A stretch of 64,000 nucleotides of DNA from an uncultured delta proteobacterium (lineage in GTDB: Bacteria > Desulfobacterota > Desulfobacteria > Desulfobacterales > JAFDCJ01). The notes under the pieces were generated by a model. That model made no database searches, was not told the DNA's origin, and was given only the letters and a program-made list of their open reading frames with translations. Both the position numbers and the translations under genes were made by a program. The DNA is taken from assembly GCA_963821065.1 (NCBI GenBank), contig CAWGCM010000011.1, positions 112,992-176,991 of the forward strand, read 5' to 3'. Of the stretch, positions 14,351 through 52,832 are shown one piece after another. The stretch's first letter is position 1, and the number at the start of each line of letters is the position of its first letter.

Positions 14351-16443
14351 CTATTCTTTGGGTTTGCTGAACAGGTTTTTTATTTTGCTGCCCAGGCCTT
14401 CTTTTTCCTTTGTATCGGAGCCTTTTGGTGCGCTTTCCCCCCCGGATTTCTTCTGGCCGCCAGGAGGTTGTTCTTTGGCTTTTTGAAGCGCAACAACGCA
14501 GGCATTTTGATCACCACTTGAAGTCGAAACTATTAGGGAGGCGAGGCCGCCCGGTCCCAGCAGTGCCTGGCCGAGGATAGAAACTGTGCGCTCGGGGCTG
14601 ATGCCAAGGGATGGATTGGCAAGAGTACCGCCCAACTCGAACGGTTTGGTGATTGCACTCAAGCTTAAGCCAATTTTACCGGTTTCTTTGGTTCCAATCC
14701 CTCCTTTGGGTTTGGTCTGAATACCAAAATCCAGTTCTTCGGTTTTGAGATTAAGGGTACCCTGGCTGAGCAAAGTCTTGTTGGGGTCGTCGATGATGAT
14801 GGCATCACCGTTGACCATACCGTCTTTTATATTTAAGTCACACACCGCACAATTAATTTGCGCTTGATTAATTTTTTCTTCAAAGGGATTCACTATCTTC
14901 AGTAGACTGCTGCTCAGATCCGCGCCCACCAGATCTAAATATTTGACAGGCATTTTACCCTTGCCCATGCTGGCAAAGAAATAGCCATTTAAACCGGCCA
15001 TGACGGCCGCCACCGAATTTCCCTGTCCCGCGAGGTCGATGTCGAGGTCCAGGGTGCCTTCGATGTCCCCGGAAATGCCCATTTTCTTGAGCATTTCACC
15101 CAGGTTTATTTTCTGAGCGGTTATCTTCGTCTTCAACCTGGCATTGTTAGCCTGGGTGACCAGATCCAGGGTACCGGAAAATTTGCCGCCGCCGACATCG
15201 GCTGTAAAGGGTTTCATTGTCAAATGGCCGTTTTGCAGATTGATTTCTGAATGATAATTGTCAAGAGCGGAGATCAAACCAATGATCTGATCGACGCGCA
15301 GGCTTATCTTGGCGTCAATTTTTTGCAGGGCACTTAGATCAAGGGGTTGAGAGGGAAATACCTTATCCTTTCTGGTGCCGGTTCCAGTGGGTTGTTTTTG
15401 TTTGCCAGCGGGATCCTTTTTTTCAGCCAGCACTGGCCGCAAATCCAGTTTTTTAGACGTCAATTTAGCTTCAATCAGGGGCCGTTTGGCGGCGCGCGTG
15501 ACGTTAACACTACCCTGTATCTGGCTTTCACCCAGAACAATAATAGATCAGATACCTGTACCATCTTTTCTGAAGGCGACACAACGTGCCCTGATAACCG
15601 AAAGGGTCCTTTCACCGGCAGCGGCTCACCGGTGAATTTTTCAAACTCCGCCAGGTCTTGACCATCAACATTCAGCTTCAGATCGATGCCCCGGGCGGTC
15701 ATCAGGTCTTGAATACTGCCCTCAACTGAAACTTTGGTTTTGACGGCCTGAGCCTCGAGTTTCAGTGGCCATTTTTCGTTGGGTCTCAGCGCTTTTGAAA
15801 TAAGACCAATATTGCCTTTTACCTCAAAAGGCGTCTTGTTATAACTTCCCTTGATATTTATATCCGCCCCGTCTCCGGATAGCGGTGCTTTGAGATCCAG
15901 GTTCGCTAATTCCACCGTCTCGGTCTGGCCGGTCCGGTGATCTTTGTAGATAAGTTTTGCGTCTTTTATTTCAACTTTTTCCAGTTCCAATTGCATCTGA
16001 CTATCGCTGCCGGTCTTTTCTTCGGTTTTGGGGGATTCTGCCTTTTTGGCAACATCAAAATCCAGATTTGATTGGCCTGATTTATTGATCTCCAGCAAAA
16101 ATACAGGTTCTACCAAAATGAGGTTGTTGACAGTGATGTTGCCCCTGATCAGAGGTAGAATCGATACCTTCACCTGTAATTTTTTGAGCCGTGCCATCTG
16201 GGGTTGAGAGCCCCAGGTTGCATTCTGGAAGGCGACATCATTAACTTCCAGAGTTGGCGGGAACCCGATTTTCAAGTCAACATCGCCTCCCATGGTTAAC
16301 TCACGACCGGTGTATTCCCGGGTCGTATCGGTGAGCAAAGGTTTCAGCTTGTTGTAGTCATATGAGGCCGCAATGATGTAAGCCACGACCAGCACACCAA
16401 CAAATGCTGCCGCAATAATTCCAAGGATCCATTTCCAGCGCAT
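14351..16443 (-). pseudogene. AsmA-family outer-membrane assembly protein, split by one frame lesion
   Basis: The N-terminal ORF (15475-16443) has a TM helix and AsmA region. The C-terminal ORF (14351-15463) continues it. The downstream frame reads ..IVLGESQIQGSVNVTRAAKRPLIEAKLTSKKLD straight through the apparent stop. The lesion is near 15543-15552. Length 2093+1 is divisible by 3. Confidence 0.75.
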
Positions 16444-31863: not shown

Positions 31864-32957
31864 TTAATCATCTGATTTTTGAAATAATTGAATCATTAAT
31901 GGCAGGTCACCTTCGACCGAGTATTTTTGCTCCATGAACATTTGCTGTCCGTCAGCTTTGCCAGTAATTATATCCATCCATAAGTCGAAAGGCGTCTCAA
32001 TGGTGATGTCAGGGTTTTCCTTGCTACCTTCTTTCTGCGGATACGTTTCCCCTTTCAATTATAAAGTAGCATGAATCATGTCACTTCACCAGAAAAATTA
32101 AATTGCAAACTTATTTTTCGTTCACCAATTGATTCCGAATTAAGGCCAAAGGGAAATACCAACATAAAGCTTTCAATGGAATCTGGCCGCGGAATCATGT
32201 TCTTCTCCCGAAATTCTTTTGGTGTCACGCCCTCTGCGATACAGGTTTTCCAGAATAAATTGCCCATCTGGGCAAACGTTTGAAAATCAATGATCGGTTG
32301 CTGGATCTGATTCAATGTTTCGGTGGAAACTTGCCCGGAGGTTACCAATTCCCGCCCTGCCTGAATCATTGCCTCGAATACCTCCTGTTTTTTATCTTCA
32401 ATTCTGGATAGTGTTTCTGCTGCGGGTCGATATATTTCAGCCAATAGTCTCATATGGCGGCCAAACAAAAAATTGGACATAACTTGAAAGTTGGTCAAAA
32501 ACTGACATCTCTAAAAAGCCCGCCACCGAAAGCACAACGGCATCGGGAGGTGTCTGGCGCAGTGGATGCACGGTCCGGTTATCACGTTGTTCAAAAAAAG
32601 GTTCGAGTACTCGGAAGGGTGCGCTCAATAAAAGCCTTCATCTCGGCGTTTACCGTATAATGATAAAGAGGTGTTGCGTAAACCACCAAATCTGAATTTT
32701 AGCCACTTTGGGAACAGCTCCTTTGTCATGTCATCTTTATGAATACACTTACCGGGAGTTTTAGTCCAGCAAGTGAAACAGCCGATACAATACTTAATTT
32801 TTTTTTCACGTAGATTCACGACTTCGACGTCGGCACCAGCTTCTTGCATACCCTCGACAAGGTGATTTAGCATTAGTTCGGTTTTGCTCTGGCCTCCGTC
32901 TCGGGGACTGGAGTTAATGGATAGTATTTTCATGGCGCCTCCTTTCTTATCTTGCAT
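31864..32957 (-). pseudogene. Flavodoxin-like NAD(P)H-dependent oxidoreductase fused to a C-terminal SCP2 domain, with five +1 frame lesions
   Basis: The pieces join into one protein: MKILSINSSPRDGGQS..CWTKTPGKCIHKDD..KWLK | SDLVVYATPLYHYTVNAEMKAFIERTLP | VLEPFFEQRDN..VAGF..QLSSYV | ..LFGRHMRLLAEIY..LQFNFSGEVT | DSCYFIIERGNVSAE | EGSKENPDITIETPFDLWMDIITGKADGQQMFMEQKYSVEGDL. Length 1094-5 is divisible by 3. Confidence 0.65.
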
Positions 32958-33077
32958 TAGCTATTCATCTCCCAAAATGATAAGCCGACCTTGTATTCGA
33001 GATCATCAGAACCACGGGTAAATTGGTAATATGCTCTAAATTAGCTTCAAAATTGACGGAGTGCCGACTACAGATTG

Positions 33078-33164
33078 CTTGCCAATAGCACAAACTCAGA
33101 CAATGTTGCAATATGCTTTGGATATCGCAAACAATTCAGGCACTTAAAAGGTTTAAATACATAG
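33078..33164. repeat. Copy A of a ~90-nt dispersed element (CTTGCCAA..CACAAACTCAG.CAAT.TTGCAATAT..GATATCG.AAACAATTCA.GCACTTAAAAGGTT..AATACATAG)
   Basis: Aligns by eye with 43529-43627 and 45295-45393. In this copy the GG of the sigma54-like motif is mutated (CAGACAAT instead of CAGCCAAT). Confidence 0.8.
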
Positions 33165-33268
33165 ACATAATGTTTGAAAGTTAAGAGGTCTGCCCCTTGC
33201 GCCGTGGGTTAAGCTGTGCGACCAATAGAGGTCAAAACGGCCCAGAGCCATAACCAAGGAGGCAGACC

Positions 33269-34389
33269 ATGAAGAAAAAAGTATTATATGTCGGTTTAGA
33301 TGTCCACAAAAAAACGACAGATGTTGCGATTGCAACCGGCCGGTCCAATGGCAAGGTGAGATCTTATGGTAAAATTGATAGCACTGTTGATGCGTTAAAC
33401 AAGTTGATTAAGAAGTTAGAAGATGGCGATAAACAGCTGCGATTTGTATACGAGGCAGGACCGTGTGGCTATCAGATATACCGCCATCTTGACGCAAAGG
33501 GTATAGACTGCAGCGTGGTGGCCCCATCAATGATTCCCCGGCGAAGTGGTGATCGGATTAAAACCGACCGCCGGGATGCGGTCAACCTGGCGCGATTGTT
33601 TCGTGCAGGAGAAGCTAACCAGCATTTACGTGCCCACGGTCGAGGATGAGGCTATGCGGGATCTGATTCGATGCAGAGACGACATCAAACGTTTTGAACG
33701 TAAAGCACGCCAGCGATTACTATCATTTTTGTTGCGTCATGGGTACCAATACAGCGGCAAGAGAAACTGGACCAAAGGCTTTTATAACTGGCTGGCGACA
33801 GTCAAGTTTTCTCACTCCGCCCAGCAGGTTACACTCCAGGAATATATAGAGGCGACAAATGAATGCAGCGAGCGAATCAAGCGGATCACAGAGCAAATAC
33901 AAGTACACGTAGAGGAGTGGAGTCGGGCTCGGTTTGTCAAAGCCTACCAGGCCTTGCGAGGTGTATCGCTTATTGTGGCTACTACTGTTGTCTCAGAGAT
34001 CGGCGATATGAGACGATTCCAAAACCCCAAACAGCTGATGGCCTATCTGGGGCTTATCCCATCGGAGCATTCCAGCGGTAAAACCGTACGCCGAGGTCCG
34101 ATTACCAAAACCGGTAACAGCCATGTCCGACGGTCCCTGATTGAGGCGGCATGGACCTATAAAATGCAGGCGCGCGTATCGACCATACTTCTTAAAGCGG
34201 CAGCAAGGATTACCTAAAAGTGTTTGCGATATATCCTGGAAGGCACAAACCCGACTTTGCGCGAGGTATCGGCGGCTTATGGCAAGAGGTAAAACCAAAC
34301 AAACTGTGGTAACCGCTATCGCCCGGGAATTAAGCGCGTTTATCTGGGCCATCGACAAGGAAATGCAGGTTGCTGATACAATAATATGA
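33269..34389 (+). mobile_element. IS110-family (DEDD) transposase gene with two +1 frame lesions; element ends not defined
   Basis: MKKKVLYVGLDVHKKT..FVYEAGPCGY..RIKTDRRDA | LTSIYVPTVEDEAMRDL..IPSEHSSGKTVRRGPITKTGNSHVRR | QQGLPKSVCDISWKAQTRLCARYRRLMARGK..VVTAIAREL. Length 1121-2 is divisible by 3. Confidence 0.85.
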
Positions 34390-35514: not shown

Positions 35515-36239
35515 TTCTATCCTCCTTAGCGGCAAACTTGAGATAAATAATATTTTTTTCATCCAATCTCTTTCAAACTATTTTCTTCTCTCCTACAGCA
35601 AAGTACATGCCAAATCTTGGAGATGTGAAACTATATGGAACGAATAAATATTATATAATGTATTCAATTTGTTAATCGAATGTTGGCTTTTCTGGCCCAA
35701 TCAAAAGCGATTTGTTTAGGAAATTAATGAGCAAGTTTATGTAATTAAAGTTATAACATTGGGAATGCTCTTGCATAATTAAAAGCCCTATAAACTTAAT
35801 TATGTGATTTTTTCAAAATGATAAAAAGATAAATAAGTAGAAATTCTATATGTATTGTGCTTCGAGAGATACAAAGGATAGGATTATTAAGGTAGTCTAT
35901 AATGTAGGGAATTAAGGATTATTAAATGCCCTGGCACAGAAAAAATCAATAAATCGGAATCTTTCAAAGTTTGACATATCTTGCCATGATCACAACTTAC
36001 GAAAAATATCAGATCAAACCTATATCTCAGGCTTATAAGTGATATAAAAACCTTTGATCAATAGCAGTGATCGGCACATTTAGATTTATCCACCGGGTAT
36101 AGGATATCCACACTTTTTGGGGAGGCAATTTATATCAGATTGCCAGATGATATCCACCATAATTTGCAATTGTGTATGCATAGCCGAAATCGCACCTTTT
36201 GCAAATTTGGTTATTGCGAAAACCAACTGTTATGTGACG

Positions 36240-36659
36240 TTAATTTAGTGTGCCGTAGTACCTATAGTGACCTGTAATTTGATAATCAAATAGTATATCT
36301 TCAATTACAGGGCCCGATCCTATATTGTGAATGATAAGCGGCTTACTGCAATCTCCTGCGCGTGAGTCCGTGACAATTCCGATATGGGGTAAATAGCCCG
36401 GTAGCATCCAGCTAACTATATTTCCAGCTACATAATCATTTGGATTTTTCGTTACTGGTAACAAAATACCTTTTCTTTTAAACAGGGTTTGTAAGTTAGG
36501 AACTCTTCGGTGATCAATATTTGGATAGCTGATCTTTCTATAGGATCCATCATACCGGACGATATGTTTCGTTCTTTCAATAGCCGCTTGGATCAGTTTT
36601 TTACTAAAATCGGTTGGCTTACCTTGACGGTACGCTGAAGCTAATATCGGAATGACCAA
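36240..36659 (-). CDS. DUF1287-family protein, apparently with an internal deletion
   Basis: Contains NIDHRRVPNLQTLFKRKG..HIGIVTD..LIIHNIGSGPVIEDILFDYQITGHYRY. The segment expected between YDGSYRKISYP and NIDHRR in family members seems missing (family recall). Confidence 0.55.
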   Translation of the reverse strand: MVIPILASAYRQGKPTDFSKKLIQAAIERTKHIVRYDGSYRKISYPNIDHRRVPNLQTLFKRKGILLPVTKNPNDYVAGNIVSWMLPGYLPHIGIVTDSRAGDCSKPLIIHNIGSGPVIEDILFDYQITGHYRYYGTLN

Positions 36660-37020
36660 TCATTGGCACAGAGGGACTCGCTATCGAGCTGATTATCAAA
36701 ACCACCGAAAGAACTGTGCCTACTATAATAGCTGGAAATATCTGGTCTGCAGATTCGGTAAAAAATTTATGGGGACCAAATGATACAAGACCAAGTAATC
36801 CTACTATTATCGAGGTGGTGTATCCTATCTTACTGCGCCACCAAACGAGTGGAATAGATACAATGGCTAAGCTAAGGCTCGCTGCAATAAAAGGGCCCAC
36901 TCTGGCTGGGGGATGAGGTTGGACTTGGGCCCAAAGAGAACCCAACAATACGGCATTAAGTAAAATTAGCCCTGCCAACGAGCTAACTGCGATTTGAATG
37001 CTCCAACTGGGCTTCTCCAT
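36619..37020 (-). CDS. Hypothetical 4-TM membrane protein
   Basis: 133-aa hydrophobic ORF with RBS GGGAGA. Its 3' end overlaps the DUF1287 ORF. Confidence 0.45.
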   Translation of the reverse strand: MEKPSWSIQIAVSSLAGLILLNAVLLGSLWAQVQPHPPARVGPFIAASLSLAIVSIPLVWWRSKIGYTTSIIVGLLGLVSFGPHKFFTESADQIFPAIIVGTVLSVVLIISSIASPSVPMIGHSDISFSVPSR

Positions 37021-37199
37021 AACTTATCTCCCTAATTTTTTTTAAGAGCATAACATGTGTTAGGTGGAATCTAAATTAGTCGATATCAAATAATCGAATC
37101 AGGGATAGTGTCTAAAGTTGAAATTACATAGCTATCGGTAACGCTTCCTATAAGCCGCGAGAGAGAAAAACGTCGGCTTGACGGGTTCCTTAGGCAAGT

Positions 37200-38132
37200 T
37201 TAGTTGCTTTGTCGAATCCCCCAAAGACGCTCTGCGTTCCCATGCGCAATCAGATGTGAAACATCTGCAGGAAGTTCCGCAAACCCCCTTTTCCAATAAT
37301 TCATTTGCTTTCGGTAGAAATCACCCCAGTGCTCAGCAAATACGTTATCCAATGCAAAGATGAACCTATGGGGATATTGGATAAAAAGGTCTTTCCATTC
37401 AGGAGCAAGACGATCTCCCTCGAATATATTCGTCCACGGCTGGTTTGAGCTTTCAACCGCTGCAGGATTGGTCCATCCAGTGTGGAAATATACGTTTTTA
37501 TGGTTTTTGATCAACCGGAGACATCTATTCCTACTCAGTTGCCCCATGTGTGTTAAGATGAATGGATGTTCCGGATGTTGGTCGAGCATCTGCTTAAATG
37601 CTCTCATGAATTTCTTTCGCTTTTCTCCATGCAACGAAGCAAATTCGATATGGACTACGAATGGCCAGCTATTCTCAATCGCATAATTCAGCGCAACTTG
37701 CACTCTCTTGTCATCTGGATAAACAATTACCTCGGGGGCCTTATTACCCTTTTTAGCGTGATAAAGCAGGACTTCAGCTATTGCATGATATTTTTTCGTT
37801 GCGATTTGTTTTTTGAGCATTTCATAATATTTATTTGAACCTGTGTCGTAGGGATTGCCCTTTGTTCTTACTGCTGGCGTGATTCGTCCAGGATTTTCTT
37901 TGGATAACTTTAGCAAGGTTTTCCCTTTTAAATTACCACGTGCAGATAAGATAGTTTGACGGACCCCTGCACTATCCATTAGAGAGATAACCTTATTTAA
38001 TGGAACCACATTGTGATCTACTTGGCTATGTGCATCTATGAAATACAGTTCATTCGCATTCGCCCTAAACCAACAAATTTGCGAAAAAATAAGAACGATA
38101 AGCAATACTTTCTTTACACTGTTAAGAAACAT
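37200..38132 (-). CDS. Amidohydrolase-family (TIM-barrel metal-dependent hydrolase) protein, secreted
   Basis: Signal-like N-terminus MFLNSVKKVLLIVLIFSQ, YFIDAHSQVDH metal motif, and HIEF/THMG motifs. Confidence 0.7.
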   Translation of the reverse strand: MFLNSVKKVLLIVLIFSQICWFRANANELYFIDAHSQVDHNVVPLNKVISLMDSAGVRQTILSARGNLKGKTLLKLSKENPGRITPAVRTKGNPYDTGSNKYYEMLKKQIATKKYHAIAEVLLYHAKKGNKAPEVIVYPDDKRVQVALNYAIENSWPFVVHIEFASLHGEKRKKFMRAFKQMLDQHPEHPFILTHMGQLSRNRCLRLIKNHKNVYFHTGWTNPAAVESSNQPWTNIFEGDRLAPEWKDLFIQYPHRFIFALDNVFAEHWGDFYRKQMNYWKRGFAELPADVSHLIAHGNAERLWGIRQSN

Positions 38133-38382
38133 AATAGTCCAGCAGGGTAGAACCTTCGTCATAGACTTCGTCAATGAGATCAAATACCATTTTTTTCATT
38201 ATAAGGTAACTCAAGACAGCCATAGGTATAAGCATTACAATGAACATAATGTCGCGGGCACTTTGATATCCGCTAAGAAATATTGACCTTAGTACAAAAA
38301 AAGCCAGAAACCCGAACCAAATCACCGGAAAAACTCGTTTATTAAAAAACGTCCATTTTGATGTAAGTTTCTTCATAGTCAA
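38122..38382 (-). CDS. Small hypothetical membrane protein (86 aa)
   Basis: Two predicted TM helices. Overlaps the amidohydrolase start by 11 nt. Confidence 0.4.
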   Translation of the reverse strand: MTMKKLTSKWTFFNKRVFPVIWFGFLAFFVLRSIFLSGYQSARDIMFIVMLIPMAVLSYLIMKKMVFDLIDEVYDEGSTLLDYYVS

Positions 38383-38415
38383 CTTATTGGAGGGGCGAGA
38401 TAGCCGGAATAGGCA

Positions 38416-38487
38416 GGTTAACGACCAAACTCACTTGCCGCAGTGGAGCGTAGCGGAATTGCGGTCAATTGCAGCGCCTTGTTATGC
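38416..38487 (-). other. attC-like recombination site (72 nt) overlapping the VOC stop codon
   Basis: On the minus strand: GCATAAC..CTGCAATTGACCGCA - loop - TGCGGCAAGTGAG..GTTAACC. The inner stem pairs except for bulged G and A on the 5' arm. The ends match the ..TAAC/GTTA.. core pattern. Confidence 0.4.
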
Positions 38488-38898
38488 GTTTTCATTTACG
38501 GGGCCCACCCAGAATAGTGGGTTATGAGCCACCTCCCAAAGATGACCGTCGAGATCTTTGAAATAGCCACTGTAGCCACCCCAAAATACCTTCTGCGGTT
38601 TCTTGACCAAGGTTGCGCCGGCATCAACTGCTTGCGATACGACCTCATCAACTTCCTTTTCTGGGCTTACGTTGTGGGCAAGTGCAAAAGACTCGAACCC
38701 CTCTCCTTCGGAAGATACCGTTGCATCTTCTGCCAACGCTTCCCGCCCATACAACCCTAACCAAGTACCATTAAGTGTGAAAAAGGCAACCTCTGGCGGC
38801 GATTCCATTCGAGGAAAACCGAGCCCTTTCTCGTAGAACTCAATTGCCGCCGCAAGATCGCGAACGCCGAGTGTGATCATGCTGATTCTTGGTTTCAT
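38482..38898 (-). CDS. VOC-family (glyoxalase/bleomycin-resistance fold) protein
   Basis: 138 aa: MKPRISMITLGVRDLAAAIEFYEKGLGF...DLDGHLWEV. Confidence 0.85.
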   Translation of the reverse strand: MKPRISMITLGVRDLAAAIEFYEKGLGFPRMESPPEVAFFTLNGTWLGLYGREALAEDATVSSEGEGFESFALAHNVSPEKEVDEVVSQAVDAGATLVKKPQKVFWGGYSGYFKDLDGHLWEVAHNPLFWVGPVNENA

Positions 38899-38920
38899 TG
38901 TTCGCAGTTCCTTCTTTTAC

Positions 38921-39047
38921 GCATAACATTGCGGTTCACCTGGTGCAGGGGTATACACCAAATATTTAAATGCAAAAAGGTTAAGACAACCTGTCAATTT
39001 TCTAAACGGCTCGGCCCCTGCGATCAGGTGAAACCGTCTTGTTATGT
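38921..39047 (-). other. attC-like recombination site (127 nt) between the DUF1566 and VOC cassettes
   Basis: On the minus strand: R'' ACATAAC, arm AAGACGGTTTCACCTGATCGCAGGGG, a 63-nt loop, arm CCCCTGCACCAGGTGAACCGCAAT, R' GTTATGC. The arms pair except for a 3-nt mismatch beside the R boxes and single-base bulges (T, C) on the R'' arm. Confidence 0.55.
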
Positions 39048-39115
39048 TTTTACGATTTTTCAAAACATAAGCTTAGGACGACCCCGATTCCTCGTCGAAG
39101 AGAAGCCAGCTTTAT

Positions 39116-39576
39116 TTATTTGTCACTGCGCACTGGCAAGACGTGGGTGGGACCGGAATAAAACTGGCGAAACCAGTACACTTTTCCGTAAGTAAAATTG
39201 AAACGTCCAGCCTCGTTACCCCGAGTATCAGAGGCCCAGCAGCTTTGGGCAGTGGTACTGATCAATCTAATAATATGGTAACCATTTTTGTTCTTTTCAT
39301 TTTGGTCAAAAAGGCTCGCGAGTTCTGCCAAAGTTGGCATTCGCCAATCGTTGTATCCTCCAACATTGAAATTCGAACAATAAGAAAGAGCATCTGACCA
39401 TTTGATTGGTACTCCATTATCTTTTTCTGACCACATTAAACCGGTTTTAGTATCCGTAATTGTGCCATCTCCGTTGTTCACAAATCGATTTGATGCAATT
39501 GCGGGAAGGGTAAAAAAGGAAGATAACAAAACATGAAAACAAGTTTATGATTCAACAAGAGTTTCAAGTTTTTCAT
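39116..39576 (-). pseudogene. DUF1566 (Lcl C-terminal domain) protein with a frame lesion in the signal peptide
   Basis: Contains GDGTITDTKTGLMWSEKDNG..GGYNDWRMPTLAELASL. The ATG at 39576 (MKNLKLLLNHKLVFMF) is in another frame. Length 461+1 is divisible by 3. Confidence 0.7.
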
Positions 39577-40193
39577 GTAAATTATTCCTTGTTTGAGGAT
39601 GTATTTTTTTAATATGGTATGGCGATCAAAACATAACATATGCATTAACAGGATTCTGGTTAGCAGCGGATTTTACCTTAAATCCGCTCCACAGCCATAA
39701 TTCCGATTTTATCGAGATCCCTTCTTGCAGTCAAATACAATACACATAACTATCTGTAATAAATATAAAAATTATAATATCTGTATGCGTCTGCGCATTT
39801 ATTCAAAAATTCTGTCATTTAACAAAAGTCGGCTTTTTGTGCCATATAGGAATGCTAACAAGAAATCTTGCTAATAATCGAATCGGATTCCGATTGATGA
39901 AAAAAAAGCCTTTGAATATGATTTGAATATCACATGATTTTCAAAATTTAAAAAGTGTTGATCAAGCAGATATCAAAGATTCGCATAACGCTGCCAGTGA
40001 GCGGCGGCCTAAATAAATTCCAAGTTGGCACGGCTATTACGTAAAACCGCTATCTTCAGGTCGTCTGCTCCACGCTTTTGTTCGTTCATTGATCATGAAC
40101 CGCAAATATCGGCCCTCAGCATTGGCGTAGCTAAAAGAACTGCCCCCAATTCCATCAAGTACTAACGATTGGAAAATAAGGCACCAACTCGGT

Positions 40194-40949: not shown

Positions 40950-41287
40950 AGCACATTTTCCTTTTTATTTTGCTATATTGATGATTTCCCAAGACATTAC
41001 TTCGACGAACTAGCGGCAAACAATTGATTGTGTGAATCTGGATATCATAGCCTTTGTAATGTTATACAGTTCAAACGCGGATCGTGCCACAATAAAGATA
41101 AATAGAGTATCAAAATTTTGGGAAAAGTTGTGATACTTACTGGTTTAGATGGCAATTTAGTGGGCCTTTACGGAATGTCAGATATCTTGATAATCATCTA
41201 AAAGGCACCTCCCCATCGCAAAACGGTTTGCGATTTGTTATAAGCGGTTAAACCCACATTTAACCCCCAAACCAAAGGAGGTGCCCA

Positions 41288-42307
41288 ATGCAACTATACG
41301 CTGGTTTAGATCTTCATTCAAGAAATACTTACATCGGTATTATGGACAAAGAATTCAAACGCCTCTTTGGCAAACGAGTTTTAAATAAGTTGCCAGTGAT
41401 TTTAGATACATTAGCTCCATTCCAGGATCAACTCAAAGGAATTGTCGTTGAATCCACTTTCAATTGGTACTGGTTAATCGACGGTCTGATGGATGCCGGA
41501 TATCAGTGTGTTCACCTGGCCAATCCATCGGCGATGAAGCAATACGAAGGAATCAAGCATACCGATGATCAGCACGATGCCTTCTTTCTGGCTCAGATGC
41601 TGATTTTGGGCATCTTACCGCAAGGCTACATTTACCCCAAAGAAGACCGGCCGGTGCGTGATCTGGCACGCAAGCGGTTATTCTTAGTGCGCCATAAAAC
41701 TTCTCACATCCTCAGTCTGCAATCATTAATTGCGCGCTGCTGTGCCCAAAGAATCAGTGCCAATGAAATCAGAAAGTTTACCGTCGAAGACTTACAGCAG
41801 CTATTGAAAGAAGAACATATCGTTCTCTCCGCACAGGCCAATTTAGACACGATTGTATTTTTAAAGCAGCAAATTCAGCGACTGGAAAAAGCAATACAAA
41901 AGAAAGTAAAACTCAATAAAGCATTTCAGCAATTGATGACGGTTCCCGGCATCGGCCTTATTCTGGCCATGACCATTATGCTGGAAGTCGGCGATATCGG
42001 TCGCTTTGCCCAAGTCGGCAACTTTGCTTCCTATAGCCGCTGTGTATCTTCCCAGCGACTATCGGACGGCAAAAGCAAGGGACATGGCAACCGTAAAAAC
42101 GGTAATCGCTATCTGAGCTGGGCCTTCACTGAAGCTGCTCATTTGTCCCGTAGATACAATGAGCATTTCAGAAGCTATTATAACCGCAAAGTGGCCCAGG
42201 CAAATACGAGCCTTGCCACTAAAGCGCTGAGCAATAAACTGGCTCGGATTTGTTATTACATCATGCGAGATCAGGTTCCTTTCCGTCAGGAACTTTTATC
42301 TCAATAG
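41288..42307 (+). mobile_element. IS110-family (DEDD) transposase gene, intact; element ends not defined
   Basis: 339 aa: MQLYAGLDLHSRNTYIG..VESTFNWYWL..KHTDDQHDA..VPGIGLILA..GHGNRKNGNRYLSWAF. RBS AAGGAGG. Confidence 0.9.
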
Positions 42308-42309
42308 TT

Positions 42310-42383
42310 GGGACTGCAACGGTGATCCCGCGATATTGGTGGTTGAAAACCCCATAGCTTGGTTGGCACACCGTTGCACTCCC
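42310..42383 (+). other. Long stem-loop immediately 3' of the IS110 transposase gene (candidate IS-encoded ncRNA or element end)
   Basis: GGGACTGCAACGGTG (42310-42324) pairs with CACCGTTGCACTCCC (42369-42383) at 14 of 15 positions. Confidence 0.4.
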
Positions 42384-43452: not shown

Positions 43453-43528
43453 TAGATCGTCCTCCTTCCCTCGAGGATTAATGAACGATGTCCCACCCTT
43501 AGCTCAATTTTACATCAACTTGTGACAT

Positions 43529-43627
43529 CTTGCCAAGAGCACAAACTCAGCCAATATTGCAATATATTTTAGATATCGCAAACAATTCAAGCACTTAAAA
43601 GGTTGGAATACATAGCAGAAAGCAAAA
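43529..43627. repeat. Copy B of the ~90-nt dispersed element, with an intact sigma54-like motif
   Basis: The minus strand reads TGGCTGAGTTTGTGC at 43553-43539, which is GG-N10-GC. It lies about 75 nt upstream of the 43452 start. Confidence 0.8.
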
Positions 43628-45267: not shown

Positions 45268-45294
45268 AGATTGTTATTCGAGTTTTACAAATAT

Positions 45295-45393
45295 CTTGCC
45301 AAGCGCACAAACTCAGCCAATGTTGCAATATGTTTTAGATATCGAAAACAATTCAAGCACTTAAAAGGTTGGAATACATAGCAGAAAGTAAAT
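45295..45393. repeat. Copy C of the ~90-nt dispersed element, with an intact sigma54-like motif
   Basis: The minus strand reads TGGCTGAGTTTGTGC at 45319-45305, just upstream of the 45267 start. Confidence 0.8.
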
Positions 45394-45587
45394 ATCAGCA
45401 ATTTTTTAAAAAAAGGCTGTATAATTTGAAATTATTCCCGTTAAATGCTTATTGTGATATCCAATTATATCCTTTTATATCCTTCAGTTCACAATCAGTG
45501 GGCGGTACCTCTATATATTGTGGTAGCTCGATGGGCGGGAAAATCATAACCCGTTTAAACTTTGTTATGCAATCGATATATTTCCTC

Positions 45588-52739: not shown

Positions 52740-52832
52740 TCATCTTTCTGCCAGATGGGTTTTAAGCGTATGCCGAAAGCTGTGGAAGGTCTTCTTCCCC
52801 GGTTTCCCTAATGGGTTGTCTGGGGTTCCATC
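52740..52832 (-). pseudogene. Tyrosine recombinase/integrase remnant (box II region only)
   Basis: C-terminal ..GKKTFHSFRHTLKTHLAER* resembles the HxxRHT box. There is no catalytic Tyr region or N-terminal domain, and the rest of the 178-aa ORF is antisense to an NfeD-like fragment. Confidence 0.4.

Follow-up and report, generated by a model that had tools for sequence, protein, structure and literature searches.

A probable CALIN in a Desulfobacterales-like chromosome: a short, partly decayed array of attC-delimited gene cassettes

On the minus strand of a 64-kb stretch of contig CAWGCM010000011.1 (the whole stretch is called the window below), a series of short genes between positions 40086 and 36229 is interrupted by imperfect palindromes that resemble integron attC sites. 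Are these genes integron cassettes, and if so, where is the integrase? An earlier note on this DNA had read the region as single-gene cassettes delimited by attC sites with no integrase in the window, that is, as resembling a group of clustered attC sites that lacks an integron integrase (CALIN). By definition, a CALIN holds two or more attC sites that share a strand and are spaced by under 4 kb, and no intI gene occurs within 4 kb of it (Cury et al. 2016, PMC4889954; IntegronFinder 2.0, PMC9024848), and the Deltaproteobacteria are covered by taxon-specific chromosomal attC families (Ghaly et al. 2021, PMC8352920). Independent structure models and homology breaks at the G|TT crossover point support this reading, and we put the probability at about 0.9 that the minus strand from 40086 to 36229 is a CALIN, consisting of clustered attC sites and gene cassettes without an integron integrase in the window. 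Its location is chromosomal, and its host is a Desulfobacterales-like bacterium: RecJ of this DNA has its nearest matches among proteins from Deltaproteobacteria and Desulfobacterales MAGs. The array is short and partly decayed, an ordinary representative of a common and well-described class of which thousands have been catalogued.

Read along the minus strand, an SDR oxidoreductase gene is followed by a 104-nt attC site, about 350 nt without an open reading frame (ORF), and a collapsed site. Next come the Lcl_C/DUF1566 cassette with its 127-nt attC (39636 to 38927, 710 nt) and the VOC cassette with its 72-nt attC (38926 to 38422, 505 nt). A unit comprising a membrane ORF, an amidohydrolase gene, and a weak 56-nt site follows (38421 to 37142, 1,280 nt; its right end is weakly supported), and a final unit, made of a membrane ORF and a DUF1287 remnant, ends near 36229. 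The cassettes are co-oriented, as had been claimed, but they are not all single or intact: two ORFs share one cassette, the Lcl_C gene carries a frameshift, and an internal deletion has affected DUF1287. GC content drops to ~0.41 at 34–40 kb of the window.

Simple searches for attC sites proved non-specific. In an energy scan for hairpins closed by AAC...GTT, the 127-nt site ranked first, but two of ten Markov shuffles reached a similar energy. Scans for mini-hairpins and for R and L boxes in fixed register did not discriminate either (42 matches, with about 42 in shuffles; in the loci, 89 on one strand and 66 on the other) and served for the choice of seed sites only. We therefore built our own attC covariance models from 22 to 55 sites in arrays of other genomes, with no window sequence included. 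These arrays lie next to genuine integron integrase genes (TIGR02249; L088 and L064; numbers with L denote our comparison loci). The first model, R1, was made from 22 sites trimmed to R''7-UCS5-L''8...L'7-UCS6-R'7 (UCS, unpaired central spacer) and contained no homologue of the VOC attC. R2 was built from 29 full-length R1 matches, and R3 from 55 R2 matches.

R1 gave one match in the window, the 72-nt site (22 bits, E=0.026). With filters off, this model was blind to long sites, because the trimmed model limits match length. R2 gave three matches, all on the minus strand: 38487 to 38416 (37.8 bits), 40086 to 39983 (22.9 bits, E=0.006), and 37191 to 37136 (14.1 bits). With R3 and filters off, the 72-nt site scored 38.5 bits (E=5e-7), the 127-nt site 22.2 bits (E=0.0046), and the 104-nt site 19.6 bits (E=0.02). 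Two matches of 13.3 bits came next, one of them at 37191 to 37136 (E=0.71), and all of the top five were on the minus strand. Three significant attC sites thus lie within 1.7 kb on one strand. The covariance-model check proposed in the earlier note, carried out here with our own models, placed the three best window matches within 38416–40086 on the minus strand, including both of the sites that had been named.

Strand specificity was high in the controls. In 1.24 Mb of loci, 28 of 29 R1 matches and 54 of 55 R2 matches fell on the cassette strand, and the pooled control arrays (1.5 Mb) gave 73 of 74. In 310 kb of loci carrying Lcl_C homologues, all 19 R3 matches lay on the strand of the gene and flanked close homologues. 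In 54 kb of related chromosomal DNA, the only R3 match exceeding 9.6 bits was the orthologous site in L001, a 97%-identical strain. Rfam gave no window match at gathering thresholds; it apparently holds no attC family.

The attC of the Lcl_C cassette (38921–39047, minus strand) is 127 nt long. Its R boxes, ACATAAC and GTTATGC, are inverse-complementary at 6 of 7 positions and enclose a 63-nt central loop, as described previously, and its register is ACATAAC-AAGAC-GGTT[T]CAC...GTGAACC-GCAAT-GTTATGC (R''7-UCS5-L''8...L'7-UCS5-R'7). Its R3 match covers the full model. As single-stranded DNA, it was predicted to form a single imperfect hairpin closed by both 7-mers (−24.8 kcal/mol, z=−4.1), and none of 200 shuffles was equally stable. 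The complementary strand forms an equally good hairpin, and on either strand the extra bases fall on the ACATAAC (R''/L'') arm, so the bulge asymmetry predicted in the earlier note was reproduced. The same description had the stem interrupted by single bulges; the arm was correct, but the supposed single C bulge is a 3 × 2 internal loop in the minimum-energy fold. The G of the R' box (38927) is also the start of the VOC cassette.

The attC of the VOC cassette (38416–38487, minus strand, 72 nt) begins with GCATAAC, which contains the VOC stop codon, and ends with GTTAACC, its R boxes being complementary at 5 of 7 positions. Its register is GCATAAC-AAGGC-GCT[G]CAAT...AGTGAGT-TTGGTC-GTTAACC, and its L boxes form five Watson-Crick pairs, one wobble pair, and one mismatch. 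The third site, 3' of the SDR gene (39983–40086, minus strand, 104 nt), reads AACGAAC-AAAAG-CGT[G]GAGC...GCTCACT-GGCAGC-GTTATGC, and its R boxes pair in AAC/GTT only. The earlier note had listed 39989–39983 as a lone core; this core is the R' box of the complete 104-nt site, which had been overlooked. Each of the three has a single additional base in L'', aligns to the full model, and lies 3' of an ORF on the same (minus) strand, and their lengths are inside the range of about 57–141 nt known for attC.

These sites also belong to recognizable families. The 104-nt site falls into a ~105-nt family (L089:1055, L093:1904, L091:537, and others) and is 81–82% identical to sites in L089 and L093–L095 that flank other cassettes. 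The 127-nt site falls into a family of 126–132 nt (L095:4265, L093:2740, L098:376) with the same architecture. Both families are present in coastal-sediment arrays. In the family alignments, compensatory changes keep the stems, at nine pairs for the 104-nt site, eight for the 127-nt site, and nine for the 72-nt site (L box 9/12).

Evidence that these sites delimit mobile units also came from comparing the junctions of the same cassettes between genomes. The VOC/glyoxalase-fold gene (38898–38482, minus strand; Pfam PF00903) encodes a protein with more than 7,900 relatives, many 85–96% identical and mostly on short contigs. When one genome per species was counted, proteins 75–95% identical were found in 80 genomes of more than ten phyla. 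Carriers include Omnitrophota, Methylococcaceae, Planctomycetota, Nitrospirae, Marinimicrobia, Zetaproteobacteria, Desulfurivibrio, Elusimicrobia, Gemmatimonadota, and Chloroflexota. In the closest loci, upstream similarity starts exactly at G|TTATGCGTAAAAG (window 38927), and the DNA 5' of this junction is different in every genome. At the other end, the VOC stop codon lies inside GCATAAC and is followed by a site homologous to the 72-nt attC (for example in L017, L018, L023, and L058). The contexts in L003–L007 represent a single lineage and carry little information.

In several genomes, an intI gene or fragment lies a few kilobases upstream of the VOC gene on the opposite strand. NCBIfam TIGR02249 confirmed two of these integrases: one in Billgrantia zhangzhouensis, with an in-frame stop (L088:14850–15959, minus strand), and one in Marinobacterium halophilum, of which only the N-terminal half is present (L064:3049–3693, minus strand). 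Fragments of intI also occur near VOC arrays in L020, L028, L033, and L060. Among 72,556 plasmids we found no close relative of the VOC protein (best below 60% identity), and an exact-protein look-up returned nothing on record. The nearest structures and families, a glyoxalase-related enzyme (3bqx), a mitomycin-binding protein, and Fos, are all far below family cut-offs.

The Lcl_C/DUF1566 cassette gene (39575–39116, minus strand; Pfam PF07603, 1.7e-22) was compared with metagenome contigs encoding relatives. All of these share sequence from GTTATGTTTT on, and the DNA before GTTATGTTTT is unrelated. One of them, L098, matches the window at 98.4% identity, starting exactly at 39637, the G of GTTATGT. 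Relative to L098, the window copy has lost one T from a T run, and the ATG at 39575 is therefore out of frame with the ORF that encodes the domain (39529–39116). Every homologue at least 63% identical is flanked by attC matches on the strand of the gene. Homology of the VOC and Lcl_C cassettes thus begins exactly at the cores at 38927 and 39637, in agreement with the earlier proposal that G|TT is the crossover point.

A close strain was compared as well. L001 encodes an SDR protein identical to that of the window (40949–40194, minus strand; Pfam), whose gene is conserved immediately upstream of the first attC. Identity between the two strains is 94% just past the SDR gene, 76% across the 104-nt attC, and 49% beyond its GTTATGC. 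Gene content here therefore differs between very close relatives. Invariant gene content at syntenic positions, which would have suggested plain terminators, was not observed, given the divergence of L001 and the unrelated upstream DNA at the VOC and Lcl_C junctions.

The remaining sites and cores are weaker. Six minus-strand GTTATG[CT] cores occur within 3.2 kb against 0.32 expected (Poisson p ~1e-6, a post hoc calculation), and the count for the entire window (19 against 12.8 ± 3.7) is not significant. The lone cores listed earlier are all present, but that at 39750–39744 is unsupported. A collapsed attC remnant, TGCTAAC...GTTATGT (39631–39665, minus strand), scores 6.6 bits with the attC model, and its R' core (39637–39631) is the left boundary of the Lcl_C cassette. 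Of an attC-like hairpin proposed at 37136–37205, only 37136–37191 (minus strand) matched, and weakly. This site, AAGGAAC..GTCAAGCCGACG..GGCTTAT..GTTACCG, lies just past the amidohydrolase stop codon, is not significant alone, and is probably degenerate. A second such proposal, at 39651–39704, failed, this being a plain hairpin with no model match. The mini-palindrome ACCTAACACATGTTATGC (37048–37065, minus strand), a collapsed R''/R' pair 27 nt upstream of the next ORF, gave a weak R3 score of about 11 bits on both strands. Just past the DUF1287 stop, an R''-like ACATAAC without a partner R' (36229–36235, minus strand) can be read from the sequence, with no model match, and is probably the truncated end of the array.

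Several mini-palindromes (45544–45570 and 39631–39665, both on the minus strand; 37048–37065; and L014:1639–1665) pair an R''-like core with an R'-like one at almost no distance, as in GCATAACAAAG-N9-GTTATGA. Those in the window score 7–13 bits with the attC models, and the VOC attC of L014, likewise collapsed, scores 23 bits. Such palindromes may have arisen from attC sites by deletion.

The two cassette units downstream of VOC were delimited from the window sequence only. The first (38421 to 37142) extends between the 72-nt attC and the weak site at 37136–37191, and contains an 84-aa membrane ORF (38376–38122, minus strand) overlapping an Amidohydro_2 gene (~38129–37200, minus strand; Pfam PF04909, 4.5e-10). 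The last (37020–36240, minus strand; Pfam and translation) contains a 133-aa membrane ORF (37020–36619) and the DUF1287 remnant (36659–36240), which covers profile positions 76–163 only. At the other end of the array, the stretch of about 350 nt without an ORF (39982–39637) holds a promoter-like element, a hairpin, and the collapsed R''/R' pair. The element, TTGACT-17-TAAAAT (39706–39734, minus strand), is the best sigma-70-like match of the region (10/12) and lies just upstream of the Lcl_C cassette. Judging from its sequence, it could serve as promoter for the downstream cassettes where an integron cassette promoter (Pc) is lacking. A terminator-like hairpin (40200–40181) lies at the end of the SDR gene.

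From established integron biology, the cassettes would have entered through an IntI tyrosine recombinase that recognizes the folded bottom strand of attC and cuts at G|TT. The integrase would then have been lost by the array or separated from it, possibly with the involvement of IS110 elements. The array would now be decaying, and the better-preserved sites could still be excised in trans, given an IntI elsewhere in the genome.

A number of observations weigh against this assignment. Our models are home-made and differ from that of IntegronFinder, and the E-values they give are approximate. Default filters missed the 127-nt site, which scored only 15.4 bits with R2. The extrahelical bases of the attC bottom strand are usually G and T; here they would be A or C. 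For the 72-nt site, the ends and the model match stood, but a convincing fold did not: it folds no better than shuffles (z=0.07), and the case for it comes from the covariance models and from homology. No more than three sites reach significance, the remainder being weak or collapsed, and two of the cassette genes are damaged.

If the CALIN assignment is correct, does the array still recombine? It might be a dead fossil, with true attC descendants that no longer recombine and genes that are drifting toward loss. We regard this as possible but on balance doubtful. The signs of decay are the Lcl_C frameshift relative to L098, the internal deletion of DUF1287, the poor folding of the 72-nt site, the change of the 104-nt R'' to AACGAAC, and the collapsed sites at 39665 to 39631 and 37065 to 37048; in addition, CALINs have been proposed in the literature to be degraded integrons. 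However, the 127-nt site is structurally intact with its full R/L register, the VOC ORF is undamaged, with 96% identity to other copies, and the near-identity of the Lcl_C cassette to a metagenome copy in a different context indicates recent movement.

The opposite possibility, that the array is not a relic but a live cassette reservoir in a sediment community, seems somewhat unlikely to us. The VOC cassette encodes proteins 75–96% identical in more than ten phyla, Desulfobacterota among them, and retains its G|TTATGCGTAAAAG junction there. If the reading is true, few known non-resistance cassettes would have been exchanged as widely and as recently as this one. A distribution of this kind would require strong selection for a detoxification function, and the cassette would be mobilized in trans from integrase-less arrays such as this.

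The integrase itself was sought by tblastn with IntI1 and the TIGR02249-confirmed IntI proteins of L088 and L064. No match was obtained in the 64-kb window even at E≤10, consistent with the absence of an integrase noted earlier. A 178-aa ORF on the cassette strand, ~12.7 kb from the cassettes, ends (52740–52830, minus strand) in ...KKTFHSFRHTLKTHLAER, which resembles the FHSFRHT-type motif of tyrosine recombinases. This had been taken for a recombinase trace; the motif resemblance holds, but the ORF has no Pfam or NCBIfam match and no similarity to IntI, and we rejected it as a trace of an integron integrase.

We consider it unlikely that the array forms the distal end of, or has become detached from, a complete sedentary chromosomal integron, with intI and attI beyond the window and cassettes still actively shuffled. 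Consistent with such an arrangement, the window is 64 kb of a 350,940-bp contig, two IS110 elements border the low-GC variable region, a further collapsed attC-like palindrome lies at 45570 to 45544, and half of CALINs share their replicon with an IntI gene (Cury et al. 2016, PMC4889954). However, the window holds no intI gene, not even a fragment, within 36 kb on one side and 24 kb on the other (the search did not extend to attI and Pc, for which no general model exists), the region is flanked by ordinary chromosomal genes, and the gene damage and degenerate sites suggest that the array is not maintained.

That the palindromes are ordinary terminators or repetitive extragenic palindromic (REP)-like repeats with a coincidental likeness to attC is hardly credible: they do lie just downstream of ORFs, and simple rule- and energy-based scans match shuffled sequence equally often, but a terminator scan found no T run and made no terminator-like call at any attC site, the junctions differ between relatives, the sites match structure models from integrase-adjoining arrays, and homology breaks exactly at G|TT, with the same genes in unrelated contexts across phyla.

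An intact IS110-family transposase gene borders the array (41288–42307, plus strand; Pfam PF01548/PF02371, NCBIfam NF033542), and a second, different one is frameshifted (33269–34217, plus strand; Pfam/NCBIfam). NCBIfam labels the family "RNA-guided transposase". The intact gene has a small hairpin 45–70 nt before its start (41218–41243) and a 66-nt hairpin closed by AAC...GTT just after its stop (42314–42379). We considered both as attC candidates (41243 to 41218 and 42379 to 42314) and rejected them; both adjoin the IS110 gene and more likely belong to the insertion sequence. The L001 contig ends at 41129, near the likely edge of this element.

On the other side of the array, beyond the frameshifted IS110 gene and on the cassette strand, lies a truncated FMN_red gene (32625–32957, minus strand) that covers profile positions 1–62 of 152. 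FMN_red genes also occur near the VOC cassette in L003 and L007. The fragment may be another degraded cassette.

In SpoIIE relatives (L167–L169), whose genes are 86–89% nucleotide-identical, similarity to the window is gone exactly at the gene end (45802). The region from 32 to 45.8 kb therefore appears strain-variable throughout. Since close SpoIIE homologues are mostly on contigs of 2–5 kb, assemblies seem to break here. The low-GC variable region also contains three copies of a direct repeat of ~95–100 nt, 80–95% identical and in one orientation (33076–33175, 43527–43626, and 45293–45392). Two copies lie 75–119 nt upstream of minus-strand ORFs. The repeat is not attC-like, has no convincing fold, and had no match in the comparison loci. 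It contains TGGCTGAGTTTGTGC, with sigma-54-like −24/−12 spacing, and may be a shared promoter or leader. Elsewhere in the window, an adjacent pair of minus-strand ORFs (14351–16443) corresponds to the N-terminal (profile 7–228) and C-terminal (406–603) parts of AsmA, a gene that may be split or frameshifted.

The array adds one more integrase-less example, from a Desulfobacterales-like sediment bacterium, to the thousands known and leaves the current understanding of integrons unchanged. It also illustrates that attC sites can be spotted by inspection of raw sequence, and that junction comparison across genomes can then confirm them. Of most use is the VOC cassette: the near-identity of its protein across many phyla makes it a good marker for exchange between phyla by integrons and a candidate for functional study.

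Among known systems, mobile (class 1) integron cassettes offer one comparison. The window sites share with the aadA1 59-base element the R''-UCS-L''(extra base)...L'-UCS-R' register and the G|TT crossover. In contrast, the array is not on a plasmid or transposon, carries no resistance gene, and has a VOC cassette without a close plasmid relative. Sedentary chromosomal integrons, such as the Vibrio superintegron, offer another: the window array is likewise chromosomal, with co-oriented cassettes of miscellaneous or unknown function, and its attC sites fall into families characteristic of a lineage or environment (~105 nt and ~127–132 nt, in coastal-sediment metagenomes). Unlike these integrons, it is very short and without intI in the window, and it has three attC types among three cassettes rather than a homogeneous set. 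From published CALINs (PMC4889954, PMC9024848) it differs in nothing essential, apart from several sites collapsed to R'' plus R' and site calls made with our own models. Like them, it is small, chromosomal, accompanied by insertion sequences, and degrading, and its cassettes are unrelated to resistance cassettes.

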